Source: an uncultured Verrucomicrobiae bacterium (lineage in GTDB: Bacteria > Verrucomicrobiota > Verrucomicrobiia > Chthoniobacterales > Terrimicrobiaceae). From it: 64,000 bases of DNA. Below the pieces are notes generated by a model. That model saw only the letters and a list, made by a program, of their open reading frames with translations, ran no database searches and was not told where the DNA came from. The stretch is taken from NCBI GenBank assembly GCA_963706955.1, contig CAVPOC010000008.1:1044293-1108292 (forward strand), written 5' to 3'. Positions 10,099 through 64,000 of the stretch are shown piece by piece. A program made the position numbers and the translations under genes. The stretch's first letter is position 1; every line of letters begins with the position of its first letter.

Positions 10099-12496
10099 TC
10101 AAGCTGGCAACGGCTCGATTCTCGCGATGCTCTCCATGCGCCAGTGGCAGCCGAGCACGCGGTTTTCACCGACGACTTCGATCCTGCCTTTCGATTTGAT
10201 GTCGCTGCTGGATGCACCGACGAATAGCTCGAATTCGCCGGCCTCGACCACGCGCTGATAGGCGGTATTGGTGAAATTGAGCATGTCCACGGGAATGGAG
10301 AAGCTCACCACCGCGCGTTCTTTCGGCCGCAGCGTGACTCTCTGGAAAGCCTTCAACTCCTTTACCGGGCGGACCAATGACGCGAAGACGTCGCGGAAGT
10401 AGACTTGAACGACTTCGCACCCCTCGCGCTCGCCGGTATTCTCAAGGTCGATCGCCACCTCCACGGTTCCATCACTGGTGCTGACTTGATTCTCTTTAAT
10501 CCGCAATTCGCGATAGGTGAACTGGGTATAGCTCAGGCCATAACCAAACGCGTACTTGGTGCCGAAGTGATAAGCGATCGGAGCGCCGCCACTCTTGAGC
10601 TTGTGGTTATAGTAGTACGGCACCGCGCCGACATTTTTTGGGATCGAGACTACCAGGCGTCCGCTAGGGTTTTCCTTGCCCGTTAGGAGATCCGCTATGG
10701 CTTCGCCTCCTTCCTGACCTGGTTGGAACGCCATCAGAACTGCTGCGGCTTGGTCTTCGAGCCCATTGAGAGAATACGGGCGGCCGGAGGTAACCACCAC
10801 CACTGTGGGTGTGCCGGTCGCGATGATTCGCCGGACGAGCTCTTCCTGGACCCCTGGCAATTGGAGGCTGTCAGTGTCTGAACCTTCGCCCACCGTTCCG
10901 GTCTGGAACAAGCCGGCCAAGTCGCCAACGAAAACGATGGCGACATCGGACTGCTGCGCGCACTCCACCGCGCTGTCGATCTGAGAAAGATCACGGCTGA
11001 TTGGCGAGGTTCGCTTCAGGCTTGCCGCGACGTCGGAATCGACGTCACCGGGAAAGACGGGCGCTTCCGGATTGCGTTCGGTCAGGATCTCGCATCCTTT
11101 CGCATAACGAACGTTGTTCTCACCAAATCGCTCCAGGAGAGCTTGCAGCGGGGTCTTGGCGTATTGGGCGTCTTCTTGCATGTTGGCGACGATCAAATGC
11201 ACCGGAAAGGAATAGCCACTAAACATCGCCAACTGATCGTCGGCGGTTGGACCTATCACCGCCACCTTCGGGCTCTTCGTAGGGTCCAGCGGAAGCACGC
11301 CGCGATTTTCCAGCAACACGATCGACTGCAACGCCACCTGTTTCGCGAGCTGTATTGCGTTTTCCGCTCGAAGGTTCAGCTGACTCTCGTCGGCATACGG
11401 GTTTTCAAAGAGACCTAGACGAAACTTCTCGGTGAGAATGCGCCCTACGATTTCATCGATCTTTTCCTCCGTTATTTGACCGCGTTTCAGCGCCTCTTGG
11501 AGATTTTCTGTGCAGTCAAACCCGGGCAATTCGATGTCCAAGCCTGCATTGAAGGCGAGCGCCGCCGCCTCGGCTTTGTCGCGGGCGACTGCGTGATGGA
11601 TATGGAGCAAGCTAACACCCCCATAGTCGGCGACAACGAGACCATCAAACCCCCACTGGTCTCTTAGAAGAGTCGTCAGCAGGTAATGCCACGAATGACA
11701 CGGCTCGTTGTCGATGTCATGATAGGCAGGCATGACCGAGCCCGGCATTGGCTTGCTTCACCGCCATTTCAAAAGGCAGCAGAAAGGTGTCGCTCAGTTC
11801 CTTGATGCCGAGATGCACGGGAGCATGATTGCGACCGCCCTCGCTGAAGGAATGACCTGCATAGTGCTTTAAGGTGGCCAGCAGTTCGCGATTCTCGCCC
11901 TGGAGTCCCCTGACGTAACGGGTAGCGAGAACACCGATGAGGTAAGGATCCTCTCCCATCGTTTCTTCGGTGCGTCCCCAGCGAACATCGCGCGACACGT
12001 CAAGAACGGGTGCGAGACCTTGATGACAACCAATCTGCTTGGCCTCTTTTCGAATCTCACCACCAACCTGCTCAATGAGCTCCGGATTCCAGGTCGAGCC
12101 GTAGTTCAAGGCGGAAGGAAAGAGCGTCGCACCTTTTGCCATGAGGCCGACCAGGCACTCTTCGTGCGACATCGCGGGGATGCCGAGCCGAGTCTCCTCG
12201 ACGAGAAACTTCTGCAGGGTGTTGAGGGCGCGGACGCCCTCTTTGGCATCGACCGGGTGGGTGCCGAGTGGCCGGGTGATTTGGCCCATCCCCGCCTTGA
12301 GCATCTCCTTGAAGGCCTCGCTCGTCGTCCTCTGTGCGAAAACATCCTCGCGCATGCGATGCTCGCCGTTCGCGGAGAGGATCAACCAATGAGAATACAT
12401 TTGGGCGATTTTCTCGGTCAAAGTCATCCGTCCGAGAAGGTCAACGACGCGTTCTGTGACCGGCAACCGAGAGTCTTTGTAGGGATATGTAACCAT
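10099..12496 (-). CDS. GH3 beta-glucosidase/beta-xylosidase, one indel near 11740
   Basis: RDVRWGRTEETMGEDP, LKHYAG, catalytic VADY, C-terminal Fn3-like RPVKELKAF. Confidence 0.9.
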
Positions 12497-14284: not shown

Positions 14285-15322
14285 ATGCCTGCAACCACCA
14301 TTCCGGCAGAGCTGCTTTACTCAACCGCGAGCTTGATCGAGAGCTTCAAGGTTGTGCCGCTCGCGCCCCAATTTTTGCGCGATCACTTGTTTCCGCGAGT
14401 CTCGGAGACTGCTAGCGATCAGGTCGCGGTAGACTTCTACAACGGGAGCCAAAAGTTCGCGCCCTATTGCTCTCGCTTCTCCAAGGGCACGGCCATTCCG
14501 AGGGAGCGAACGTTGACAAGCCTTTTCAGCCCGCCCTTCATCAAGCCAATCAGAAACTTGACCGCGGACGAGCTTTACTACAAGACGGCCATCCAAGCTG
14601 CGAACGCCACTGGTGATCGAGACGCGGAGTTGATGTTATTGGATTACCAGGAACTCGACGCCATGATTGGGCGGCGTGAGGAATGGATGGCCAGCCAATG
14701 CCTCTTCACCGGCAAAGTCGTTTGCCTCGATGGAGACACTTCCGAGGTCGTGGCTGAGTTGGTTTATGCACCCCGACCAAGACCGTCCCAGCCAAGCTTT
14801 GGAGCGACCCCACGTCCGATCCTCTTGGTGACATCCGTGGTGCTCTTCGCCTTGTATCAAGCGCGAGCGGAGCGAGCGCGGACATTGTGATCATGGGTAG
14901 GACCGCCGCTGACGCCTTTGAATCCCATGCTGGGGTTCAATCAAGCCTACGACAAGCTCCGCATCTCCCCAGGCCAATTGGCGCCTGCTACCGTGGGATG
15001 GGGAGTTCAAAGCCTTGGAACTTACCGGGGGATTCCCCTCTACGTTTACGAGGCGGAATACCTGAACTCGGCTGGGGCCTTGACCCCATACGTTCCACCC
15101 GACAACGTCTTGATCGCGGCTTCCTCTCTTGGAGGAACGATGGCTTATGCCGGAATCGCTCAAGTGGACGCTGCCGAAAGCGGACTCAAGGTTTACGCGG
15201 CTCGGAGGGTTCCGGTCGTGGCCTACGAGGCCTTGGAAGACTACCGGAAGTTCCGCTTGTCTTCTCGTCCCATTCCCGTGCCTCAAAACTTGGCAGCGTG
15301 GAGCCTGCTCGACGTCCTCTAA
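14285..15322 (+). CDS. Major capsid protein, lambda gpE family (two indels)
   Basis: FLRDHLFP, PPFIKP, IGRREEWMASQCLFTGKV, KLWSDPTSDPLGDI, YEAEY and LSSRPIPVP; joined length ~345 aa. Confidence 0.8.
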
Positions 15323-31694: not shown

Positions 31695-32741
31695 ATGATT
31701 CCGGTTTCGGACACGCAAGCGAAGCAGACGAACGGCCCACCGGCGGCCGGTTCCTCGCTGTTGCATCATTCGTTGACCCTCTTGCAGGTTGCCGTCACCG
31801 TCGGGCTGCTTTGGTGGCTGTTTCATAACCCTGAGCGCCGCGCCGTGATGGCAGCGGCATTGAAAGCGGCCGATTGGCGTTGGGTCATAGTGGCCATTGT
31901 CGCAGCGGGAGTTTGCGAGTTCTTTGGAATCCTTCGCTGGCAACTTTTCCTGCGCATGCTGCACATCGAGGTGCCGCTTCGCAAAACCTCAAATTTGTTT
32001 TTTATCGGCGCATTTTTTAACCAATTTCTTCCCGGCACGACCGGCGGCGACGTCGTCCGCGTGATTTTTCTTATGCAAGACCACCCGGAGAACAAGACCG
32101 AAGGATTGTTGAGCGTCGCGGTGGACCGTCTGCTGGCAGTGCTGGTGCTGGTGATCATGGGGCTGCTCTTTGCCTGGATCCGCAGCGATTGGTTTGCGAG
32201 CAGTTTTGCGGTTGGCCACCTGATGAAATGGTTCGCGATTACCCTCTTCGTCATGGCGCTCGCACTCGTAGCCTCGTTTGTCCTTACGAGCCGTCACTTG
32301 GTCACTCTGCTCCCGCGGCGTTTTCCCTTTCGGAGGCAGATTATTAAGCTTTCCAGGATTTGGCAGCTGTGTCTGGAGAATCGCCGCGAAGCCCTGCTCG
32401 GCGCGATCTATACCGTCCCGATGTTGTTGGCGTATTTCGCAGCGTTCTGCTTTGTTGCGAAAGCCTTCACCAACAAGGTGAGCTTTTGGGATATGACCTC
32501 GATCATGCCTCTGGTGACAGCAATCTCTTCCCTGCCGATCAGCCTCAACGGGATCGGCGTGCGTGAGGCACTCTTCGAAGAATTGCTGGCACAACTGTGC
32601 GGCGTTTCGCGCGGCACGGGGCTCTTGATCTCTATAACCGGAATGACCGTTTATTTACTTTGGGGATTGGTCGGCGGGTTCTTCTACCTTGGACGAATTA
32701 CCAGGCGCTACCGCGCTTGCAGCGAGACTCCAGGAAAATAA
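31695..32741 (+). CDS. Lysylphosphatidylglycerol synthase TM / flippase-like membrane protein
   Basis: FFNQFLPGTTGGDVVR, DRL and LPISLNGIGVRE. Confidence 0.85.
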   Translation: MIPVSDTQAKQTNGPPAAGSSLLHHSLTLLQVAVTVGLLWWLFHNPERRAVMAAALKAADWRWVIVAIVAAGVCEFFGILRWQLFLRMLHIEVPLRKTSNLFFIGAFFNQFLPGTTGGDVVRVIFLMQDHPENKTEGLLSVAVDRLLAVLVLVIMGLLFAWIRSDWFASSFAVGHLMKWFAITLFVMALALVASFVLTSRHLVTLLPRRFPFRRQIIKLSRIWQLCLENRREALLGAIYTVPMLLAYFAAFCFVAKAFTNKVSFWDMTSIMPLVTAISSLPISLNGIGVREALFEELLAQLCGVSRGTGLLISITGMTVYLLWGLVGGFFYLGRITRRYRACSETPGK

Positions 32742-34538
32742 ATAGCCGCCGGTGCCACGCTCCACCAAAGCCCGGTCCGTCTCCCCTCGGCTATAGTGGT
32801 AAAGGTATAACGGTCACTTAGCGCTCTGATGAAGCGCGGCGGATTGTTGACAAAGGGATTTTCCTCGAGCAGATCGGAGACGGTAGGCGAACCCTCGAGC
32901 AAGCGCTCGAGAAAGCGCAAGAACCAAGGGTTTTGCTCAGCCGTTCCCAAAGCGGCGAACCACATTTGCCAGTCGAGCCGCGGCATGTAGGGAGCTACCC
33001 AGGGAGGAGCACGCCGTGGGTCGCCCGGCTTGAAACGGAAAGAATATGCTTTCCACGTGACTCCATCATCCGATCCCTGAACCAAAATTTCTCTGCGTTC
33101 CTTCGTCATGACCGCAAAAAGCCCATAGCCGTTGATGGTCCGAAACGGAGCCACCCCTTCATAGGCCATCATCAGCGGCGCGAGTAAAGGCATGGGTCGA
33201 CGAAAGGCAGCTGAGAGCGGCACCAGGCTGAGCAGAACGATCGCAACCGCTGCCGCAAGAACAACCTTTCTCGGCAGAAAACGTGCCGGCCGGACGCGTG
33301 GTCGATTGACCCGCGACCTTGACGGCGCCAACCGCCTCCAAACCGCGTCGTCCACGCACATCAAACAGAGAAGCAGCGTCAGCAGATTGAAGAACCCATA
33401 GTTGCCGGTGAGCGCGATCAAGAGCTGAAGCGTTGCGATGCCTCCCACCCCGAACAATCGGATGCGTCTCGGCGCAAACAGGAAAAAGGGAAGCACGAGT
33501 TCGATGGCGAACATCGCCCAGACGCTGATCGTCTGCCAAGTCGCGGGCGACTGTTGCGCAAACCAGGCAAGCGAAGTCGGAAGGGGCTGGGTGAAATAGT
33601 GGTATCTCGAGGGCAGTCCCATCAGCCCAAGCGGGATCGCCACTCGTTAGCTTGACCACGCCGGAAGCGAAAATAAGTCGAAACAGCAACCAGATGATCA
33701 GGAAACGTGCGGGAGGTGGAGGATTCGCAGGCCTTGCCAAACGCAGACCCACCGGCGCGAGAAAAATGCTCATGAATCCGGCTTCGAGCAGCAGAATATC
33801 CCACTGATACTGATAGAAGAGCTGTCCGGCGACAGTGAGCGAAAGGTAGTCGGACCAAAGGAACACCAGACACGGCAACGGCACGAATCCAATAATCAAG
33901 ACGAGGGCCGCAAAAATTCCGGCACCACACCAGGCGTAGAGCGCTGTATCACCGGCGCCTAACCAGCAGACACTAGGAAACTGCAGGAACCCAGCATCCC
34001 CGAGAATTTCGCGCACTCTGTCAAAAAACTCAGCTGCGGGAAGAATTCCCTTTGCTCCATTCAGTCCGGAAAGCTGAACCCAATAGGAAATAAACGCCAG
34101 GAGATAGACCACTCCAAGCAACCGCAAGAATAGCCAGGTGGATATTGCGAATGTTGGCACGCGCACGTCTGCACCCCAAAGGAGTTGCGTCACGCGGGAA
34201 AAGAACATCCGATTCCGAGCAACCGCGCGGTAAGCCGCGTCCGCGGGCCGGGCGAACCAAGACTTCTCGTTATAGAGCGAGAGAAGTGTTCGCCCACTGG
34301 CGGAAGCCGTCGCCAGAGCTGCAAAAACCGCCGGTGCGCCGGACAATCGTTCGCCCGCAGCGCCTACCCACTGGACAGCTTCATTTGATTCTTGCTTCGC
34401 GATGTCGAGGAATTCCTCAGCCGCCTTTTGGGAAGTGAGATAACGAACGCGGTCTCCAGTAGTGGCACGCCAGCGCTCGACCCAACGTGCGCAGAACTTG
34501 CAGTCGCCATCATAAATCAGGGTCGGACGCCGCGCCAT
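32708..34538 (-). CDS. Lipase maturation factor family protein with N-terminal DCC thiol-disulfide domain (indel near 33610)
   Basis: YDGDCKFC; QWDILLLEAG, SGVVKL, TQPLP, YGLFA and MPRLDWQMWF. Confidence 0.88.
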
Positions 34539-44273: not shown

Positions 44274-44949
44274 TTAATACTCATCATGACGACGCCACCA
44301 CTCGTAGGGTGGTGTCTGCGGCCATCCGGCTGGTGAATCCTCCCACTGCTCTTGTCGGCCGAGCGGTGTCAGGTCGAGCAGAGCGAAGCTACTGACCAAG
44401 TGCTCAACACCGCGAGCAGTCGTGAAGTAGGTCTGGAAAATAGCATCGCCGTTTCGCAGGAACACGCTGAGTCCAAAGGTTTCGCCTTCTGGAGTTGTGA
44501 GTCCGAAATCGTCATTGAAATCCGTGCCGGCGGAGGAAAACCATGGGATCGCTCCATCCCATCCGCCGTCTGTACGCCTCGAGATTTGCGAGCGGCGCGC
44601 GCGAGACCAGCACAAGGGAAGTGTTGCGAGTGTGCAGGTGCGCAACCGGACCAAGGTGGTCGACCACCATGGAGCAGCCTGGACAACCCGCCGAAGGCCA
44701 GCCGTCAACATCTGGCGCAAACATGAAATGGTAAATAATGAGCTGGCGACGTCCGGCAAAGAGATCAAGCAGACTTGCTTTGACCCTCGGGTCCCTCAAA
44801 GATGTAGTTCTTCTCGATCGGGAACATCGGCAGGCGGCGACGTTCGGCCGTGAGACATCGCGCGCCCGCGTAGCCGCCTTCTCCTTGACCAACAATTGGT
44901 CTCGAGCTCGCTGCCACTCCTCCCGCGAGATGATCGGCGGATGGCTCAT
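44274..44949 (-). CDS. DUF899 thioredoxin-like protein, frameshifted
   Basis: LLVKEK, LIIYHFMF, GCPGCS and LLDLTPLGRQE. Confidence 0.85.
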
Positions 44950-53859: not shown

Positions 53860-54135
53860 TCAGCTCAACGCAAGCTCTTCGCCACGGAAAGATAGCAACA
53901 GCAGTTCGAGTTTGTTGAGGGCCTCATGCTCATCGGGCCCGGTCGCTTCGAGGGCGACCCGGTCGCCACAATTCAAATTGGCAGTAAGCACTTCCAGTAG
54001 GCTCGCCGCCGAAAACCTCTCACCGCCCTTCCAGATCGTGATGGTGCTCTTGAACCTAATCACCCACCGCACAAAGAGCGCCGCCGGCCTCGCGTGCAAC
54101 CCGAGCTTGTTGACAATCTGGACCTCTCTCAACAT
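53860..54135 (-). CDS. HPr family phosphocarrier
   Basis: VNKLGLHARPAA; regulatory Ser in AASLL. Confidence 0.85.
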   Translation of the reverse strand: MLREVQIVNKLGLHARPAALFVRWVIRFKSTITIWKGGERFSAASLLEVLTANLNCGDRVALEATGPDEHEALNKLELLLLSFRGEELALS

Positions 54136-54339
54136 CTGAGGAACATACAGTCGCCCGGATCGGCTTCCAAATCACGAAGTGAAAATCCCGGCTTGGGAGG
54201 CAACGATCAGGGGGCTGCCCGATAATTCAGGCGACGATTAACCGTGGGCTTCGGACTCGCCCAGCTTCCAAATTGCTCAGAGCCTAGGACTTAGGGGCGA
54301 CTTCCGAGCCTGGGAGCACTTGCTGCGGGTGCCAGGGCC

Positions 54340-54531
54340 CTAGTCCGCGTCAAGAGCCTCTTCCGATTCTGAGTGCTTCACGAGAGCCTGACATACTCCT
54401 CCAGACACCTGAAACGGCGTCCCGAATAAGCTCCATCCATTCATCATGTGGGCCTTGACGAACTTTTCGAGTTCGCTTGGATGGGCATATGCGACCAGCT
54501 TGTAATCGACAAAGTTATTCACAGGAAACAT
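54340..54531 (-). CDS. Small DUF1737-like protein
   Basis: YKLV...GWSLFGTP...CQALVK. Confidence 0.55.
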   Translation of the reverse strand: MFPVNNFVDYKLVAYAHPSELEKFVKAHMMNGWSLFGTPFQVSGGVCQALVKHSESEEALDAD

Positions 54532-54731
54532 GGGATTGCTGATAACGTTGGTGAGCCTCCCGCCTCCTATAGCCTCTTTGCGAACGTTTAGTGACGAACG
54601 AGTTTTTTTTAATCCCGACTGGGCGAATGAACAGCTCCGTAGACTTTTGGACAGTTATAGGGCAGCAGCGCGAAAACGTCAGAACCCAAGAACCTTCGTA
54701 CGTGATTTGCTATCAGGGACATACGGCACAA

Positions 54732-54763
54732 GGATTCGAACCAGGGACCTAGTGATTACAAAT
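54732..54763 (-). pseudogene. Degenerate 3' half of tRNA-Thr(UGU), probable relic att site
   Basis: Minus strand reads ATTTGTAATCACTAGGTCCCTGGTTCGAATCC: anticodon loop, variable loop and T loop; stems imperfect. Confidence 0.55.
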
Positions 54764-54882
54764 TAGTGCAAGGGACCGCAAGCCCAACGACATGTCAGCA
54801 AGCTCCTGGAAACGGTCACGGACTTACTCGGAAATGGTCTTACCAATGATAGAGTCTAGACGTAAGAACCTGATAATCAATA

Positions 54883-54915
54883 TGGTGGAGGCGAGGGGAG
54901 TTGAACCCCTGTGTC
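54883..54915 (-). ncRNA. ssrA: 3' fragment of tmRNA (or tRNA-Ala), att site of element 2
   Basis: Minus strand GACAC-AGGGG-TTCAACT-CCCCT-CGCCTCC-ACCA: T arm plus Ala-type acceptor strand; rest of the gene absent. Confidence 0.75.
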
Positions 54916-55030
54916 GGCAACAGAGATCCACTAATGTTCGCAGACGTCCATTTTACAAGGGTTTGTCCACATTGGACATTGACGGACATTCTCGGACACT
55001 CTAACTGAGACTCTAACCACACATTTGCAA

Positions 55031-56181
55031 ATGTCCTGCGTTTGGAAACCGCCGAAGAGCCGATTCTGGATCGCGCAGTTTACCGATCACACTGGTACAC
55101 GACGCAATCGGAGCACGAAGACAACCGACCGTCGGAAGGCAGAGAAGCTAGCCGAGCATTACGAAGAGGCATACGCGAGAAAGCGCACCGCCCGGCAGAT
55201 CCGAGAAGTGATCTCCAGCGCCCACAAAGAAATTACCGGTGAGCAACTGGTCAACAAATCGTTTCGCTCTTTTTCGAAGTCATGGCTTGCGGCAAAGCGG
55301 AATGAAGTAGCGGAGGCGACATTAAAGTTCTACTCGAAGGCAGTGGATAAATTCCTCGCTCACCTTGGCACGCTAGCCGATGCGGACTTGAGCGAAATTA
55401 CCCGTGAACACATTTTGGACTTTCGCAATCGCGAGGCGGAGACGTTCGCACCGAAAACGGTAAACCACGATCTGAAAGCGGTGAAAATGCTCTTCCGATC
55501 CGCAAAGCGGGACGGATTGATTGCTGATAATCCGGCCGAGGATGTCAAAACTGTCAGCCAACGGGGAGAGAAGCGGACTGGCGTCCTTTCTCCATGGATG
55601 AGCTTCGCGCCGTTCTCTCCGTAGCAGATGAGGAATGGAAGAGCATGATTCTTTTCGGCCTCTACAGCGGGGCGCGCCTTTTTGATGTGGCAACGCTGAC
55701 GTGGCAAAATGTGGACCTTCCCGCCAAGGAATTGCGCTTCATCGCCAGAAAAACGGGCAAGACGATCATCGTTCCCCTGGACGGGCCGCTGGCCGCGCAC
55801 GTCGAAGCGCTGCCTGCCGCCGATTCCGTTAACGCCCCGCTGCATCCCCGTGCCTTTGGCATTGTGGAAAGGCAGCGAAAAACGGGCCATCTTTCAAATC
55901 AGTTTGCGGATTTGCTCGCGCAGGCCGGACTAAAGGAGAAGCAGCCACACCGCAAAACGCTTCGCAGGGAACACGGGCGATGCCGCGCGCAGGCCGACAT
56001 CTCGTTCCACAGTTTGCGGCATACCGCCGTCACCTTACTGAAGGAAGCCGGAATCCCCCAGGCGGTCGTCATGGAGCTTGTTGGCCACAACAACCAGGAA
56101 ATGAGCCAGCATTATACTCGCGTAGGCCGTATGGCCCTGGAAGGTGCGGCAAGAGCATTTCATGACCTTCTGGCTCGTTAA
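55031..56181 (+). CDS. Tyrosine recombinase/integrase (indel near 55585)
   Basis: YSGARLFD, SFHSLRHT, LVGH and HYTR; paralogous to 12628-13750. Confidence 0.92.
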
Positions 56182-56545
56182 CCGGCTCTCCGGAGGAGGA
56201 GGGGCCGCTGCGTTTCCAGAACTCGGCCCGAAATTGAATCGGCGGAGACTGTGGCCTTCTGGCCAATTCTGCGCAATCATCGTGGGGTTCTCTGGCAATG
56301 CGGGCGCTGATCGTAGGGCACTCGGAAAAGGGGCGCGCTAAAACCGCAAGACCCTTCACGCGCTTAGGCACCTTCTGCTGTTCTTTGCCGCTTGCGGAAT
56401 CCGTCCAGCCGCTCGCGGATTTGCTCCTCAGTGTATCCTTTGACTCTCATCATTGCTTAGCACATCTTAGTACGTCTAGCAAAGGCCGACAGGGTGGTGC
56501 TGGCCAGATTTTGGCTTTTCCCAAGCGTGTCCAATAATCATTCTA

Positions 56546-56574
56546 TTGACAGGCACGTGGGCTTAAACTAATCT
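56546..56574 (+). promoter_or_regulatory. Sigma70-like promoter of the xis/replication operon
   Basis: TTGACA-N17-TAATCT. Confidence 0.6.
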
Positions 56575-56894
56575 CACTACCGACATAGGAAGACACCTTC
56601 AGTAGGGTCCTCGAGAAATGATTGGGCACCTCTACCAAGTAGAACCCAAACAAACGCGAGACATCCTTTTCAAGACTGAAACCTTCTTAGCCAAAACTCA
56701 ACCTGACTGATCTCAGCGCCGCGAGCGCGAGACACCCATCCGCCGGTTGAGAAACCTCAAGACCTGACTGACCTCGTGCTTCCGAGTGCGAGGCGCTCAT
56801 GGACGGCTGAAGAACCGATAACCCGAAAGAAAAGGAGGATTCTTATGTCCCGAAGGACTCTGTTGCGCACAGATTAGCGCGCGAAATTAAGCCT

Positions 56895-57089
56895 ATGTGG
56901 CTTCGCCTGCCGGTGGCCGTGAAGCAAACCGGCATTTGCCAGGCGAAGCTATACCAGTGGATCAAGGACGGGCGAATCCGTTCGGCACACATTCGTGAAC
57001 CCGATAAAACCAGGGGAATCCGTGTCATCGATGCGGAGAGCCTCAACGAATTCATCGAAAGCATGGCGGGAGGAGGTGCGAGCACGTGA
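56895..57089 (+). CDS. Excisionase-like HTH protein
   Basis: WLRLP...KLYQWIKDGRIRS...RGIRVIDAESL. Confidence 0.8.
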   Translation: MWLRLPVAVKQTGICQAKLYQWIKDGRIRSAHIREPDKTRGIRVIDAESLNEFIESMAGGGAST

Positions 57090-57408
57090 CTACGCCGACG
57101 CACACTACCGCACCAATCCCAGCAGCCAACTACACGCCGCTCAGTAAAGACCAAATCGCCGCTCCATTGGACTTGGCCCAGCGTACTACCTCACCAATCA
57201 AAATAGCCAGCGGCGCTTTTGTTCCTCGAGTGGACGGACCACAAAGGAGCCCGTGTACCTCTTTGGCTTCTCTAGGTCGCATCTGTACCAGCTCCTAGCG
57301 GAGGGAAAGATTCGTTCGACCTGTGTTAGACGCAGAGGAGCACTTCGAGGTCGGCGTCTTTTTTGCTGCGAATCGATCCGGGCATTGCTCAACAAGCATG
57401 CAGAGTGA
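57086..57408 (+). CDS. Second excisionase-like HTH protein, frameshifted
   Basis: EWTDHKG...SRSHLYQLLAEGKIRSTCVRRRGALRGRRLF across frames. Confidence 0.65.
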
Positions 57409-58004
57409 GGAGAGAGGAACAATGATCCCCGAAAAACCGGACCCTTGTTCGCATTCTTCACGCGATGTCGATAGCAGCTCACCGGCATAACCGGAAGCGG
57501 CGTCGAGAAAAGAGGACGCAGTGAGAGCCTTTCGTCGAACCCATCGACATCGCTACCGCTCCAGCAAACAGGGCGTCCTCCGCATTATAGCCAAGCGCCA
57601 TCGGCTGAGTAAGAAGTCGCCCTTTGGGATATTACCTACGACCACGTCTGCCGCGCCAAGCTTACCCAAGAAGACCTCGAGGAATACCAGTGGCTAATCC
57701 TTAGAGCGCTTTCGGCGCTGTCTGCGGAGATTGGAATTTCGTTCACCGCAGGGGTGCCAGGGCCGGATGGCTCGACCGGTTTCCTTTGGCTTTTTCGTCC
57801 TGGCCGAGAGCCGCGGCAAACAAACGACCGCGAACCTCCTCCCGGCGAGACTTCAGTGTCCTTTCTCGTGAAGGAGGAATCTTAAGTGACCCGCGCCGCG
57901 AAGCCCCACCTCCACCGCGTTGCTCAATTGGCTGACCGGCTTTTGGCCAATGCGGTCACCGGGCTCGAATACGATACGGACAACCCGATCGGAGGCAACG
58001 CCTG

Positions 58005-59054
58005 ATGAGTGACTTCCCTGCTGCCGGCGATTGGCGCGATACAATCATATCCATCGTGGAGAACGCGAAAGACGTCAACACGATAGACATCCCCATCGGC
58101 CGCGTCCTCTGATTATATTCGCGACGGGCGCTGGAACGCCCCTGTGACTAAAATTCGAAAAGTGTATGCTGACAGCCTTGAGAGAGCAGAAAGGAACGGC
58201 AGCCTTCAGCCGCACAGGGTGGCCAAGGACGCCATTGCCGGGTTCAAGAAGAAACTCCCCGGATTCACGGTAAGTGGTCAGTTCAAAAAACGGGCCGCCT
58301 CGGATTTGATCGTTCATTCGGGGATATTTTGCGTCGACATGGACTTGGTGTCTCCTGAAGAACAACCCGGCCTGATCGAACGCCTCAAGGAGGACCCCCA
58401 TGTCCAGGTAGTATTTGTTTCCCCATCGGGGTGGGGACTCAAAGTGCTGGTTTCAATTCAGCCCGACCCGCATACGTCGCAAAGATGTCGGCAGCCATCT
58501 CCGGAGCCGGCGGACATGGCACCACTTTTGCCGTTGCCCTGGTGCTACGGTACGGCTTCGCCCTGACCGAAGAGGAAGCCTGGCCGGTCTTGCTCGAATA
58601 CAACAGGCGATGCAGGCCACCATGGAGCGAGAAGGAGCTTCGTCACAAACTCAAAGATGCCGCCAAGGAGGGCAGGCAGCCCCTCCCTCGTGGCTATCTT
58701 CTTGGCGCAACTTTCCCACATCATGAACAAGCGCCAAAACATCACTACGGCGCATCGAAGTTCGTGCGGGTGGATACACACGAGCCATTGCGAGGCGGGT
58801 CAGTTGATCCTAATTTGCACGACACTATCCCGTCGGCCCCGCCGAACGAAGACCAGCGCGATCGCGAATCGGTATTGATCGGGCGTGATTCCGCGGGGCC
58901 AGTCATAGACCCCGCCCCAAGCGTGGTAAACCGTGGTACGACGCAAGAACCAACCAATCATCCTCTAAATCGTCCAAGCGCCGCTCAGCCGTTAGGCGCC
59001 AGTGCCGGTCGGGGAGATTCCGAGACCACGCAACCGCCACAACGACGTGTGTAG
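58005..59054 (+). CDS. Primase-like protein (BT4734/VirE-N type plus helical primase C-terminal-like domain), frameshifted
   Basis: KKKLPGFTVSGQF, HSGIFCVDMD, FVSPSGWGLK; then AISGAGGHGTTF...CRPPWSEKELRHK. Confidence 0.7.
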
Positions 59055-59245
59055 GCCAAGCTCGGGCGCTGGTAGCGCAGAAACGCCAAACGGCGAATCC
59101 GGTGTCAGAGAGGAAAACTATCCGCCGATCCGCCCCAAAACCAGACAAAACGTAGAGAGCTCCCAACATTCGACATCCTGGAAGGTAGACGGCGAGGCGG
59201 ACCGTCGGGTTGCGGCCGTCCTTGAGCATGAGCGCCAGACTGGCG

Positions 59246-59279
<34 letters not shown>

Positions 59280-59300
59280 CCGCTTGATGGGCATCAACCT

Positions 59301-61446
59301 GTGGACATCTCCTCCTTATACTCCAACGCCGTTCTTTTTGGGCGCGATCCTGCTCCCGGAATTGTCGCTGTTGAGGCGGCCGGCCATGATGTTGTTGAAT
59401 ACGTCCGAGGCTCGAACGGCATAACCAATACCTGCAATCTTCGGTTTCAACCATTCATGTGGGAACGCAACGGCGACTCTCTCGAGCCGCGGACCTTCGA
59501 TAGCTGGAACGCCATGAGGTCGGTATACAATCGCTCGCGGCATCAATGCGTCTGGAATCCCGTGCAGCAATACCTGATGGCCAGCGGACGGACCCTCTTT
59601 AAGAATATGAAATTCGGAGATCTCCGGCGGTTGCAGCTCGACATCAAGACCGACTGTCGGGCCGAATATGAGTTTCCCAACCCGTCTCGAGACCGGATCC
59701 TAGCTGTTGCGACAAGCGATTCTTCAGGCCGGGAAGCGGTGCTTGTCTTGGAAGAAGACGCAGACAGCTCCGAAGCGTCGTTGTTGGAGCGTCTGACCAT
59801 GACAATTCTCGAGTTTGATCCTGACGTCATCGAGGGTCACAACGTCCTTGATTTCGCCCTGGACTACATACTCAAGCGTGCCGGCCTGCTTGGACTTTCC
59901 CTTCCGTGGGGCCGTGACGGATCTCGCCTCCGTCGTGGAACGGATTGTTCCGGAAATCCTCGCACCGTTAAAATGAACATCGGCGGCAAACCGGTTGACG
60001 TTCCTGGCTTCCGAAATCCACGGCCGTCACATTGCCGACACGCTTTTGATGGCGAGGCTATACGACGTCGCTGAGCGACGGCTCACCGATTACGATCTTA
60101 AGTCGATCGCGGCTGCGCTGGGCGTAAGGGCTCCCGACCGGGTGCTTCTTCACGCCGGTGACATTCAACGGGCATACCGGGAGGACCGCGAAAGCTTCAT
60201 CGCATACGCGCTAGGCGAGGTCCGCGAGACCCGGGCGGTTGCGGCTATCCTAAGCCAGAGCACCTTTATTCAGGCGATGATATTCCCGATGGCATATCAG
60301 GACGTCATCACCGCTGGGCCGGCATCGAAGATCAACAGCCTGATATTGCGCGAATACCTGCACAATGAGGTTCCGATTCCGAAGCCGCCGCCGCGGCGCG
60401 ACTTGCGCGGGGCGCTTTGTGAGCTTCATGTTCGAGGTATCGTTAAGGACGTGTGGCACGCGGACGTTAGCTCTCTCTACCCATCTACGATGCTTGCGTT
60501 CGATTGCCTCCCGTCGTCTGACAGCCTGGGAGTCGTAGGGCGCGCGTTGACCGATCTTCGCAATTACAGGCTCGCGTGCAAGCGGGCCGTCGATCACGCC
60601 GATGACGCTCAAACCGTGATCCCGCTCAAGGCCCTTCAAGCGGCATTCAAGATTATCATCACCTCGATGTATGGCTATCTATCATGTGAAGGAATGAACT
60701 TTGCCGACCCGAGAGCCGCCGAGATGGTAACAGCTATCGGGCGCAACATCATCACACGGATGCGGGATTGGATTGCTTCTCATGGCGCAAACGTGATTGA
60801 GCTGGACACGGACGGTCTTTATTTCTCCAAGCCGCCTGATGTCACCATCGCTGAGCTCAAGCGGGGGTTGACCGACGCGCTCCCGCGTGCCATCGAAGTT
60901 GAGTTCGCTCGTTACAACTCGATGTTTTCCTACGAGATGAAGAATCACGCTCTCCAAGATGGCGACGGTCGTGTCATCATCAAGGGATCGGCCCTGCGCT
61001 CTCGCTCGCGAGAGCCGTACCTCTCGATTTACCAGGGAGCGGTTCTGTCTATGATGCTACGCGACGGGGCGGCCGAGATACCGGCTTTGTTCGATTCCGC
61101 GGTTAAGGCTGTGCGCAGCCGATCAATACCGCTGGCCAAGCTGACGAGGAGCGAAGAGGTGAGCGAATCGGTCGATGAATATCGGCGCAGAGTCGAAGCC
61201 GGCGAGCGATCAAGGTCGCCATCATACGAAGCTGTAATCGCCAGCGGGAGAGCGTTCCAACGTGGCGACCGCGTGTCGTTCTACATCCGCCGGCGCATCG
61301 ACGGCGAGAAGAAACGGGATCCGCTTTACAAACGAGCGAAGCTCGCCAACCCGGGCGATGGCGTGCGTGACGAGGATGTCGAGTTTTACATCGAGAAGCT
61401 TGAGGACGTTGCCGCGCAGTTCGACGAGTTTGCACCGCGAAACTAA
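59301..61446 (+). CDS. Family B DNA polymerase (indel near 60010), degenerate exonuclease motifs
   Basis: Motif A DVSSLYPS, motif B KIIITSMYGY, motif C DTDG; Exo motifs read DIKT, NVLDFA and YALGE. Confidence 0.9.
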
Positions 61447-61767
61447 AAACATGAACCACGACGACCCCAACACATCGTTGCCGCCGGCCGGCTGCGTGAC
61501 CATACTGACCGTCCGGATGTCTGATCCACACGATCCACTAGCCGACGCTGTGTCGCTCGGTCACCGCGAGCCACCGCTCGCAGGTTGCACGTCGCCGGGT
61601 TCCCCACCTTGCACCCTGCGACTAATCGCGCCGTCTTGACCCAATTCCTGCCAAATCATCCCCTAAATCCAGGTCGGTGTTCTCGCTCGGTCGTTACAGC
61701 CCAACTCGATCGATCTCGTTCGGATGCCTGATACCGTCCGCGGCATCGGCTCCAACCGCATCGAACT

Positions 61768-63432
61768 TTAGCGGATGATCCTTACGTTGCGCCTCGGCGG
61801 CCCGAAGAAGCGGTCCAGGATGGACTCCTCCTCGCCCCGGTGGACAGATTCGCCCCGGAACCCGGTTTTGACCGTCACTCCGCGGTAAGGTCTCCGACTC
61901 CCGCCGCTCCCGGCGGCTCCCCGAAGCATGTTCGCCGCCTCGCATTCCGCGATCAACCTAAGACCGTCAGCTGCATGGGAACTCCAATCGTGGCAGGGTT
62001 CGTCGCGTGCGATGCCCGTCGATATCTCGCGGACCGTGCGGTAGTTGCTCAAGGCCTCCAGCCCCCGCTCGCATTGAGGAATGCGGAAGCTGAACCTTGG
62101 CAACATCTGGCGCAGTCGGTTGACGCCCACCCAGATGTCGTGTGTGCGCGGCACGGCCCTCAGGCTGGTCAGCCCCGCTTCCTTAAGCTCGTTAAGGAAC
62201 GTGCGCCCGCTCTTCTGCGTTTGCATCGCGTCATGCGGCAAGAAGTGGCTGCCATAGAGATAGCCTTTGCCCAGCATCCGGGCCACGCGTTCAACCGGCG
62301 GGATGTCCAGGTCCAGATCGCAATCAATCACACGGATCTCTCCGATCGGGCCAAGTTGAAAATACCACACCGCCGTATTGACGGGGCTGCCCAGATCCCA
62401 CGTCGTGTGCACCAGCGCGGAGTGGTCGACGATCCAAGGCTTGATCGCCCCTTCCACGCGCAACTTGTCGATCGCCGCAGCGTAGATCGCGCCCTCGACC
62501 GGAGCCTGGAAGCACTCCTCCATCACGGTCGGGAATTCCCTTAAGACGAACATCCCCAACTCGGCGCGTTTGCGCTGATACCAACTCATTTGGCCAGATG
62601 AAAAATCACCCACCGAGGTGGGCAACCCGGCGAAATACCGAGCGGTCTCCTCGCCAACCTGGCGCGGAACCGCGTCCTTGTAGCTCGGGTCATGTTGCCA
62701 AGGGAAGAAAACAACCCGCCAGTCGAGCGGTCCCTTCTGCTCCTCCGGCGTTTCCAGCGCGGACTTGACCAAACTCCACAAATGCCCGTTGCGCCCGCCT
62801 TTCCATGTCGTCTCCACGACGCACACGCCGTCGCCGACCGATGGCAGAGCGCCCGTGAGAATCTCCTCGCTGCGGGCAAGGTCGCTCGACTGGATGACGC
62901 CCCACTCGCTGATCCACAAAAAGCTGTTCGCCCCGCCGCGGGCGTGCGTTCCCGCGAACATCGCGTTGGTCTTCGCTTCCTCGTGGCGGACGAATTTCAC
63001 CGCCAGTTCCCCCGTGTTCGAGCGCGTGATGGGCAGCTCACGCTTGAGCGCCGGGTCGAGCGAGTCATAGGCCACCATTACGATATCGCGAAGCTTCTGC
63101 CGGGCGTCCTCGATTGTCTGATCTATCAGCGAAATTTGCTGCCCCAACCCGAAGCAAAGCCGGTCCGCGCAAATGACGCCCAAACACGTGCTGATGCCAA
63201 GCTGCTTGGCCTTCAGGATGATGATCCGCCTGCACCCTTGCCGGTAGATCAGATCGATGATCTGAGCCTGCTGCGGGCGCGGCGCAAACTTGATTACCGA
63301 CCCGTCGCGGGTGCGGATCGAGTAGAGCCGCTCCAGCCGCCAGATGGGGTCGCGGAACGCCTCCAGCGCCCGCCGCGTGTCAATGCCTGCCGCCGCTTGC
63401 GGGACTGCTTGTTTCCTGGCTTCGCTCACCAT
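61768..63432 (-). CDS. Phage terminase large subunit
   Basis: IIILKAKQLGIST Walker A, WISEWG Walker B, VETT; nuclease TWDLG and HAADGLR. Confidence 0.88.
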   Translation of the reverse strand: MVSEARKQAVPQAAAGIDTRRALEAFRDPIWRLERLYSIRTRDGSVIKFAPRPQQAQIIDLIYRQGCRRIIILKAKQLGISTCLGVICADRLCFGLGQQISLIDQTIEDARQKLRDIVMVAYDSLDPALKRELPITRSNTGELAVKFVRHEEAKTNAMFAGTHARGGANSFLWISEWGVIQSSDLARSEEILTGALPSVGDGVCVVETTWKGGRNGHLWSLVKSALETPEEQKGPLDWRVVFFPWQHDPSYKDAVPRQVGEETARYFAGLPTSVGDFSSGQMSWYQRKRAELGMFVLREFPTVMEECFQAPVEGAIYAAAIDKLRVEGAIKPWIVDHSALVHTTWDLGSPVNTAVWYFQLGPIGEIRVIDCDLDLDIPPVERVARMLGKGYLYGSHFLPHDAMQTQKSGRTFLNELKEAGLTSLRAVPRTHDIWVGVNRLRQMLPRFSFRIPQCERGLEALSNYRTVREISTGIARDEPCHDWSSHAADGLRLIAECEAANMLRGAAGSGGSRRPYRGVTVKTGFRGESVHRGEEESILDRFFGPPRRNVRIIR

Positions 63433-63913
63433 TGCTGCTGCCTCCATTAATGCCGCCGCCCAGCGTCCCCCCGCCCGCGAAGAGTCCGCCAAGGAAGGCG
63501 GCCAGCTCGGTTCCCGCCTCCAGCCTCACCTCGGTGGGACGGTCCCAGCCAACCAGCTTGGAGAGCTGCGCCCCGACCGCCAGCTTCTGCGGGAACACCG
63601 CGTGCTTCTGGCCCCGCGTGATCAGCGCGTCGCACCTCGGGTTGTCCATCGAGGCGTCGCCCGGCTTGGCCTCATACATCTCCACCAGCGACCGGATGTA
63701 AGCCTCGCGTGAAAGCGCACACCGCGCCGAAGACTCCGCTTTCAACTCCTCAATGCGCTCGCGCACTCCAGGCCGCTTCATCCAGTTGGCCGCATTGCCA
63801 TCTGCCTGCTTGCCCGAATATTCAGCCGCCTGACGATATGCGTCGGCCCCCGACAACCCGCTTGCAACGCATTGGGCAAACTTTTCATGCCGGACATTCT
63901 TGAGGGAAGCCAT
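63380..63913 (-). CDS. Phage terminase small subunit-like protein
   Basis: RHEKFAQ...ADAYRQA...VRERIEEL HTH directly upstream of TerL. Confidence 0.75.
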   Translation of the reverse strand: MASLKNVRHEKFAQCVASGLSGADAYRQAAEYSGKQADGNAANWMKRPGVRERIEELKAESSARCALSREAYIRSLVEMYEAKPGDASMDNPRCDALITRGQKHAVFPQKLAVGAQLSKLVGWDRPTEVRLEAGTELAAFLGGLFAGGGTLGGGINGGSSNGERSQETSSPASGGRH

Positions 63914-64000
63914 GAGTGTAAAGATGACGTGATCCGTCGCATACTGCAAGCAGCTTGCAAATACTGGCTGTTACGAGGGTACTTATTGCAATAATTTACT

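Follow-up and report, generated by a model that had tools for sequence, protein, structure and literature searches.

G3 is the second-largest group of bacterial B-family DNA polymerases. A 2026 survey from the Timinskas group describes it as experimentally uncharacterised and its members as proofreading, high-accuracy enzymes with conserved exonuclease and polymerase sites and a β-clamp motif (PMC12926913). Elsewhere in the family, eukaryotic Pol alpha and Pol zeta, archaeal PolB2 and bacterial G2 keep the exonuclease fold and an active polymerase, but have lost the catalytic residues of the exonuclease (PMC7544198, PMC12926913). G2 and PolB2 moreover lack ExoIII and possess a single conserved Asp in motif C (PMC7544198). 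B-family polymerases also occur on pipolins, small integrative elements that combine a tyrosine recombinase with a polymerase of their own, piPolB (PMC5695915, PMC11551731), which is primer-independent and devoid of the first Asp of motif C (PMC7544198).

The locus described here lies at the end of a stretch of 64,000 nt, referred to as the window (G000:C8:1044293-1108292), the last base of which (64000) is also the last base of the contig. It comprises genes for a tyrosine integrase and a primase-like protein, followed by a gene for a family B DNA polymerase (PolB, 59301-61446, plus strand). This polymerase has in common with bacterial G3 the N-terminal, exonuclease and polymerase architecture, the Glu preceding x-DTDG in motif C and relatives across many phyla. 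In contrast to the G3 enzymes of the survey (PMC12926913), however, three of its four exonuclease carboxylates are replaced, a C-terminal clamp motif is not recognisable, and the gene resides on a putative integrative island. Pol alpha, Pol zeta, PolB2 and G2 belong to different clades, and the loss seen in PolB is recent and patchy, not ancient. Unlike G2 and PolB2, PolB retains all motif scaffolds and both Asp residues of motif C. The complete DTD likewise sets it apart from piPolB, in comparison with which it appears to be an ordinary primer-dependent polymerase, encoded beside a primase-like gene and apparently derived from a chromosomal PolB of the host. E. coli Pol II (G1), likewise an accessory bacterial B-family enzyme, ranks far lower among the solved structures matched by PolB (E 2e-11).

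With a probability of about 60%, PolB represents the polymerase-competent, proofreading-dead G3 replicase of an integrase-primase-PolB island, a reading in which it is predicted from sequence that the enzyme has lost exonuclease activity, still polymerises and takes part in replicating the island. It builds on the motif states of the gene, their presence in independent data, the pattern across the family and the phylogenetic placement. An earlier interpretation made from the letters alone, termed here the sequence-only reading, had proposed a low-fidelity or translesion replicase carried by a small terminase-encoding element.

Motif states of PolB and their recurrence in independent data

In the assembly PolB consists of two overlapping plus-strand open reading frames (ORFs). 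The first (59301-60074, 257 aa) matches the exonuclease domain PF03104 (E 2e-09, 37.7 bits, cut-off 23) and the second (59995-61446, 483 aa) the polymerase domain PF00136 (E 3.7e-14, 52.8 bits, cut-off 23); both profiles exceed the Pfam cut-offs and thus assign the protein to family B. The carboxylates of ExoI, ExoII and ExoIII bind the two metals of DEDDy exonucleases. In the window PolB these residues read D-K-A-E as against D-E-D-D, with three of the four metal-binding carboxylates replaced. ExoI (D-I-K-T) has Lys in place of Glu (AAG, 59646-59648, plus strand), ExoII (N-V-L-D-F-A) Ala in place of Asp (GCC, 59856-59858, plus strand) and ExoIII (Y-A-L-G-E, within the scaffold YALGEVRET) Glu in place of Asp (GAG, 60217-60219, plus strand). 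Compared with the family B consensus (A, DxxSLYPS; B, KxxxNSxYG; C, DTDG), motif A (DVSSLYPS) and motif C (DTDG, within IELDTDG) are intact, and motif B (KIIITSMYG) contains Thr in place of Asn (ACC, 60661-60663, plus strand), a polymorphic allele.

These exonuclease states and the intact motifs A and C had been read from the sequence alone, and both the codons and an alignment with the best solved-structure match, P. abyssi PolB (4flt_A, E 2e-28), bear them out: Lys, Ala and Glu fall on the positions of the ExoI Glu, the ExoII Asp and the ExoIII Asp, respectively. The ExoII Ala of the window aligns with an Ala in chain 4flt_A, and the alignment equates this position with that of the P. abyssi D215A substitution. 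P. abyssi PolB D215A is a standard exonuclease-minus enzyme, the fidelity of which is down about 15-fold (PMC12634111). However, D215A was made in the laboratory and carries one substitution, whereas PolB is a natural protein with two further carboxylates changed and only distantly related in sequence.

The 90%-identity cluster containing the window PolB has eight members on four contigs. One of these, P0127, is an uninterrupted 714-aa copy on an 87.7-kb contig and displays the same Lys, Ala and Glu, and the fragments P0121 and P0125 from two further contigs carry the exonuclease substitutions wherever they cover the motifs. Taken residue by residue, the ExoI Lys recurs in P0127, P0125 and P0126, the ExoII Ala in P0127, P0121 and P0125, and the ExoIII Glu in P0127 and P0121. 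Among the matches listed, 20 public runs from 11 studies, labelled soil, rhizosphere or sediment, contain part of this DNA, and contigs of four runs from four studies (X1, X5, X8 and X9) were compared with the window. They are identical to it at the exonuclease codons, with AAG in X1, X8 and X9, GCC in X1 and X9, and GAG in X5 and X9. The assembly is visibly indel-noisy, which might suggest that the motif changes are sequencing or assembly errors. However, since the same three codons are found in P0127, P0121, P0125 and the contigs of four runs from four studies, and since the noise consists of indels and not of substitutions, this explanation can practically be dismissed, and the three substitutions are confirmed as real and fixed in the element lineage. 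The possibility of sequencing errors, which the sequence-only reading had named as an objection to itself, has therefore not been borne out. Its remark that the substitutions differ from the indel noise of the window also holds, but an indel splitting PolB itself had escaped it.

This indel is one extra A in the A-run at 60014-60016 (plus strand), which shifts the reading frame of PolB in the assembly. The extra A is missing from both contigs covering position 60014 (X1 and X5, one base fewer), and P0127, P0121 and P0125 read in frame across 60014-60016; the frameshift is thus private to this assembly. Chromosomal genes of the window are split as well, with pieces matching successive parts of one Pfam model each, namely a GH3 glycosidase (11717-12496 and 10099-11748), an LMF1-family gene (33159-34538 and 32708-33643) and a DUF899 gene (44512-44949 and 44274-44768). 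The PolB frameshift is therefore probably consensus noise of the assembly, or alternatively a private mutation. A programmed frameshift at 60014-60016 was considered and rejected, because the other copies, with one A fewer, read straight through. Indels were encountered throughout the window.

A perfect (AGT)11 repeat (59247-59279; TRF period 3, 11 copies, 100% matches) is situated 22 nt upstream of the PolB start. It encodes poly-Ser in frame, with stops closing the frame upstream, and the contigs of run X1 seem to break at this repeat. The related proteins P0002 and P0003 are instead extended N-terminally by about 115 aa, which include a conserved stretch F-x-A-x-P-I-V-x-x-P-A.

Family placement and exonuclease-site states of the relatives

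A word-seeded search with the 483-aa part, in which 8000 candidates were scored, yielded 369 proteins at E ≤0.001. The nearest are P0002 (57%, 837 aa) and P0003 (52%, 815 aa), followed by a large set at 40-47% identity on contigs of up to 2.2 Mb. A scan of genome contigs revealed 585 relatives among 600 pattern matches; 80 of these 585 were kept and belong, by their record titles, to Verrucomicrobiota, Planctomycetota, Thermodesulfobacteriota, Methylomirabilota, Armatimonadota and others. Kazlauskas et al. 2020 describe the Glu before x-DTDG in motif C as a synapomorphy of PolEpsilonN, B10 and G3 (PMC7544198), and this Glu is present in the window PolB and in 208 of 208 aligned relatives. The G1 (Pol II-like) group is defined by a 'GWN' ExoII motif with a conserved Trp (PMC7544198), whereas the window PolB and its relatives have GHN. 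The same paper names Salinibacter phages and Nostoc phage N1 as the sole viral carriers of G3 (PMC7544198). Exactly these are the best phage matches of PolB among 50,697 phage records (36% for the Salinibacter phages and 26% for Nostoc phage N1), of which 81 match, all with less than 60% identity. Owing to the motif C Glu, GHN instead of GWN and the coincidence of the best phage matches with the named G3 carriers, PolB appears to fit the bacterial G3 (Pol-epsilon-N-like) group, a placement made via motif and phage matches and not by means of a reference G3 sequence set.

A scan of viral contigs with an alignment gave three distant relatives (30-36%) and no member of this polymerase clade, and a scan of metagenome contigs with P0127 gave four distant relatives (32-35%) and no near-identical copy. 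In the viral contigs and isolated phage records scanned, no virus carries this polymerase clade.

The source genome possesses a second PolB, the chromosomal orthologue, on contig C3. Of 61 related genomes sampled, 38 have a PolB match, including 16 of the 18 from the same genus; almost always this is one 727-aa ORF with 44-47% identity to P0127 and corresponds to the chromosomal orthologue. Genome G009 contains a second copy, which is 51% identical to P0127. For an alignment of 208 sequences, P0127, P0002, P0003, the C3 paralogue and 30 genome-derived ORFs were combined with non-duplicate locus ORFs and proteins, after removal of locus ORFs <600 aa, proteins <650 aa, duplicates and five loci in which no ORF was usable (L074, L092, L104, L117 and L124); owing to the way of gathering, the sample is enriched for Verrucomicrobia. 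In the resulting tree (a single FastTree run, LG+gamma, 726 trimmed columns, midpoint rooting), P0127, P0002, P0003 and the second copy of G009 form an element clade with a support of 1.0 and a long stem. This clade is nested in Terrimicrobiaceae-type chromosomal PolBs, within an enclosing clade of 36 leaves (support 0.974). The direction of transfer is taken from this nesting, which points to a small group of polymerases that live on islands and apparently stem from the chromosomal gene of the host family by capture.

The polymerase site is invariant throughout the alignment: motif A Asp and Tyr, motif B Lys, Asn, Tyr and Gly, and both Asp of motif C together with the preceding Glu are found in 208 of 208 sequences. 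By comparison, D-E-D-D is retained in only 88 of the 208, and at least one exonuclease carboxylate is lost in 120. A large clade of chromosomal Chthoniobacterales-type proteins reads E-L/I-D/H-G/A, while all 33 sequences from non-Verrucomicrobial records are D-E-D-D. Within the genus of the source genome, at least one carboxylate is replaced in 11 of 16 full-length chromosomal copies, and in differing ways, giving rise to G-E-D-D, R-E-D-D, D-Q-D-D, D-A-D-G, D-E-S-N, D-L-A-R and D-Q-S-G, among others; the chromosomal copy of the source genome itself reads S-G-D-N. Binary parsimony on the tree requires at least 10 changes of the exonuclease state. When the columns conserved among the non-Verrucomicrobial sequences serve as reference, departures in the genus copies amount to 33 of 112 exonuclease-catalytic cells (29%) as compared with 65 of 1657 other conserved cells (3.9%).

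P0127 departs at three of seven exonuclease-catalytic columns versus 12 of 104 other conserved columns. By rough binomial arithmetic, a change at three of four carboxylates against this background of 12/104 has a p of about 0.006 if hits are random; the pattern in P0127 thus exceeds chance. D-E-D-D is retained by every one of the three sisters that P0127 has in the element clade, so that the loss in P0127 is an event of its own on its own branch. The phylogeny proposed with the sequence-only reading hence dates the loss to the P0127 branch, with D-E-D-D sisters and within chromosomal PolBs. The loss does not appear to be an adaptation of this element: since the cellular homologues are degenerate too, the loss reflects a family-wide tendency and represents one instance of recurrent relaxed selection on exonuclease catalysis across the polymerase family. 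That cellular homologues might share the degenerate motifs had been named in advance as an objection, and it applies in part, as degeneration is found in 120 of the 208 sequences, in 11 of the 16 genus copies and in the C3 copy of the same genome, but the substitutions differ.

The C3 paralogue (G000:C3:708544-710656; L001 547-2451) has S-G at ExoI, a Phe-to-Cys change in ExoII and an Asp-to-Asn change in ExoIII. Its polymerase motifs (A, B and C) are all unaltered, the C-terminus is QADLF, and the N-terminal part lies in another frame in the assembly.

Conservation of the exonuclease site is a described property of G3 and not a defining synapomorphy; the D-K-A-E of the window PolB departs from it. 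A second departure concerns the C-terminus. A tail of the QxxLF or QxxLxL type was not found in P0127, P0002 and P0003, but the chromosomal paralogue ends in QADLF, and most chromosomal relatives have QADLF or QETLKL-type tails. These tails are presumed here to represent the β-clamp motif consensus, the position of which is absent from the available passages of the survey (PMC12926913). The missing QADLF/QETLKL-type tail suggests clamp-independent synthesis by the island enzymes. In full-text searches of the literature no report of an exonuclease-degenerate G3 polymerase was found, although the supplementary files of the survey, which lay outside the scope of this search, might list exceptions.

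Motif B gives a different picture from that of the exonuclease motifs. Thr is found in the window, in P0001 and P0124 and in the X1 contig, but P0127 has the canonical Asn, as have all 208 aligned family members, among which P0127 represents the element. The Thr, which the sequence-only reading had listed with the other substitutions, is thus present in the window (ACC) but not fixed; it is a segregating variant within the population. This bears on the proposal that PolB is adapted to modified or non-canonical nucleotides by way of an altered motif B and a failure to excise unusual bases. The one point in its favour is the Asn-to-Thr change of this allele, at a residue that contacts the incoming nucleotide in other family B enzymes. 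However, the Thr is polymorphic, the visible 9 kb contain no gene for modification of nucleotides or DNA, and the exonuclease-degenerate chromosomal relatives keep the Asn (208/208), which leaves such an adaptation very improbable.

The island around PolB

To the left of PolB, the integrase is encoded on the plus strand at 55025-56181 by two ORFs, 55025-55624 with Phage_int_SAM domains and 55594-56181 with PF00589 (E 1.1e-20). In front of it lies a stretch of 28 bp (54885-54912) that is identical (blastn, 100% over 28 nt) to C8:547404-547431, the 3'-end of the resident tmRNA gene (C8:547402-547758, minus strand), about 552 kb away. This stretch probably constitutes the attachment core, and 27-30 nt at this place match the tmRNA region in most related genomes. 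A complete tRNA or tmRNA was not found in the window (ARAGORN, Rfam gathering thresholds). A second fragment (42 nt, 54725-54766), situated 120 nt from the tmRNA core, is 88% identical to the 3' part of a tRNA-Thr(tgt) on contig C2. Both of these tRNA-like sequences (54725-54766 and 54885-54912) were rejected as full genes, being fragments only; their arrangement suggests a graveyard of attachment sites to the left of the integrase.

Downstream of the integrase follow two small DNA-binding proteins of the HTH_17 type, both on the plus strand. The first, of excisionase/regulator type (56895-57089), matches PF12728 with E 2e-06, and the second (57253-57408) with E 5.7e-05 at 23.7 bits, below the Pfam cut-off of 27. 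The primase-like protein (58144-59054, plus strand) is again divided between two ORFs. 58144-58566 matches the BT4734-like N-terminal domain PF08800 (E 4.3e-15) and phrog_18375, annotated as 'DNA primase/helicase' (E 1.4e-13), and 58431-59054 has no family match. A GGACA-rich repeat region (54968-54998, TRF period 10) is located just upstream of the integrase. In one X8 contig, PolB position 60991 is followed by 64 nucleotides of different sequence, the first 24 of which match this region at 54974-54998; the junction could stem from a variant of the island with a deletion, or the arm-type site could be repeated.

On the minus strand, convergent with PolB, an intact ORF of 574 aa (61768-63492) encodes a large terminase subunit (phrog_2, E 1.5e-13), accompanied by a small terminase subunit (63380-63949; PF03592, E 3.2e-06; phrog_51, E 2.9e-12), 51 nt beyond which the contig ends. 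A copy of the pair with 75.6% nucleotide identity is found at C6:366351-368121, and many genomes of the family contain homologues with 64-89% nucleotide identity but no integrase-primase-PolB part. In three scanned neighbourhoods (L136-L138) the terminase genes form an isolated island of one or two genes, with a transposase beside two of them and no recognisable head or tail genes adjoining. The terminase pair is linked with PolB by adjacency and is an uncertain member of its mobile unit. Of the small terminase-encoding element initially proposed, an integrase-bearing element with a primase-like gene can be retained, but the terminase is attached to it by adjacency, and its homologues are scattered in the absence of the PolB module.

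The second island-borne copy, in G009, has the order integrase-DUF3854-DUF3631-PolB and is flanked by ordinary chromosomal genes; no clear flanking repeat and no recognisable terminase were found around it. No report of an integrase-primase-PolB island with a primer-dependent PolB was found in full-text searches of the literature. About 40 kb from the island, the match of an ORF at 14285-14890 to Phage_cap_E (E 1.7e-19) covers the first 138 of the 329 model positions, and the ORFs after it lie in different frames; a further region of phage origin seems to be present here.

Constraint, decay and the predicted role of PolB

If PolB is the replicase of the island, the following course of events can be proposed. 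The island would comprise the tyrosine integrase with its tmRNA-type attachment core, the two HTH proteins, the primase-like protein and PolB, the latter descending from a chromosomal PolB of Terrimicrobiaceae-type Verrucomicrobia. In the present lineage ExoI Glu would have changed to Lys, ExoII Asp to Ala and ExoIII Asp to Glu, with the exonuclease domain retained as a structural module and the polymerase site conserved. After excision, the primase-like protein would prime the island and PolB would extend the primer without the C-terminal β-clamp motif of its chromosomal paralogues and without removal of its own errors. A replicon of about 10 kb may tolerate the raised error rate.

Several observations weigh against this interpretation. 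No second attachment core or direct repeat closing the island was found within 54100-64000, and the contig ends inside or beside the island. Between the window and the public contigs 14 positions in 13 codons differ, nine of the codons non-synonymously and four synonymously; the resulting ratio (pN/pS) is 0.73, which rejects an omega of ≤0.2 (p 0.024) but does not reject neutrality (1). Most sampled copies of the element carry Thr at the motif B Asn that is otherwise invariant (208/208). Further single-base indels are found in X8 (59418 and 60796) and X9 (60119), at a depth of about 2 and flagged as possible errors, the 7.4-kb and 9.8-kb contigs encode proteins that are broken up elsewhere in the sequence, and the integrase and primase-like genes are also split in the window.

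Together with the window frameshift, the pN/pS, the motif B Thr, the indels, the fragmented proteins and the split neighbouring genes form the case for regarding PolB as a decaying, non-functional gene, in which the exonuclease changes were the first hits and the motif B change and the indels came later. However, an intact ORF of 714 aa exists in P0127, and X1 and X5 are free of the insertion of the window. Indels affect the assembly of the window as a whole (GH3, LMF1, DUF899), and those of X8 and X9 stem from the low-depth contigs just mentioned. Moreover, of 107 columns that are ≥97% conserved among the 204 non-element sequences, P0127 departs at 14 and keeps 93, comparable to its exonuclease-intact sisters with 10, 12 and 10 departures (95-97 kept), and seven of its 14 departures are also changed in the sisters. 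Neither domain exhibits excess divergence, and all polymerase catalytic residues are retained in P0127. No sign was seen that the exonuclease domain of P0127 decays more rapidly than its polymerase domain, the identity between P0127 and P0002 being 56% in both. Decay of the gene is accordingly judged unlikely, though it deserves to be kept in mind, and the data are taken to reflect conservation over the long term, with constraint possibly relaxed in the population of today. RNA runs X15-X20 contain only 0.05-0.08 of the sampled words of the stretch.

A further possibility is that PolB is cargo, an exonuclease-minus damage-tolerance or mutagenic polymerase supplied to the host, for which plasmid-borne translesion polymerases provide a parallel. 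The chromosomal paralogues are themselves losing proofreading, which would suit a short-patch or translesion role, and bacterial B-family polymerases are described as non-essential accessory enzymes, with a translesion role for E. coli Pol II (PMC12926913). However, in two independent islands PolB comes immediately after a primase-like gene, as is usual in replication modules, it is devoid of the clamp-binding tail expected of a host-integrated repair polymerase, and the host already has an exonuclease-degenerate copy as well as three Y-family matches. A role as cargo is therefore improbable. The sequence-only reading is partly supported, with three of four exonuclease carboxylates replaced, the polymerase carboxylates intact and the ExoII change at the D215A position.

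With regard to the chromosomal copies, a loss of proofreading fits short-patch work. The source genome contains no match to PF00476 (Pol I), at a completeness of 92.5%. Among 42 related genomes outside the genus (G019-G060), 19 have PolB only, nine PolA only, two both and 12 neither; these counts come from non-independent kin, and some of the genomes are incomplete. The rare co-occurrence of G3 PolB and Pol I (PF00476) may indicate that PolB acts as a stand-in for Pol I, which is to be taken as a lead only.

The evidence tips slightly towards a broader view, in which the G3 PolBs of Chthoniobacterales/Terrimicrobiaceae repeatedly shed proofreading while the polymerase site stayed invariant. 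One large clade (E-L/I-D/H-G/A) would have lost proofreading long ago, with the loss now fixed; at least six lineages of a single genus would have done so recently and independently of one another, and the island that captured the gene would add a further case. The enzyme would perhaps be short-patch and error-tolerant, possibly replacing the Pol I that is absent from most of these genomes, and the island copy would be a natural exonuclease-minus, clamp-independent mini-replicase. No new kind of machine would be implied, as proofreading loss is well known in other B-family clades, and the window copy may be damaged. The island would, however, constitute a primer-dependent, host-derived counterpart to pipolins, with integrase, primase and PolB in less than 10 kb, and natural exonuclease-minus variants are at hand for biochemistry. 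Repeated loss of proofreading, if true, is at odds with the present picture of G3 as a group of proofreading, high-accuracy enzymes. This picture fails in a lineage where over half of the relatives sampled lack one or more exonuclease carboxylates, lost in many independent events with the polymerase site untouched, a pattern that amounts to a natural experiment on the conditions under which proofreading is dispensable to a cell or a small replicon.

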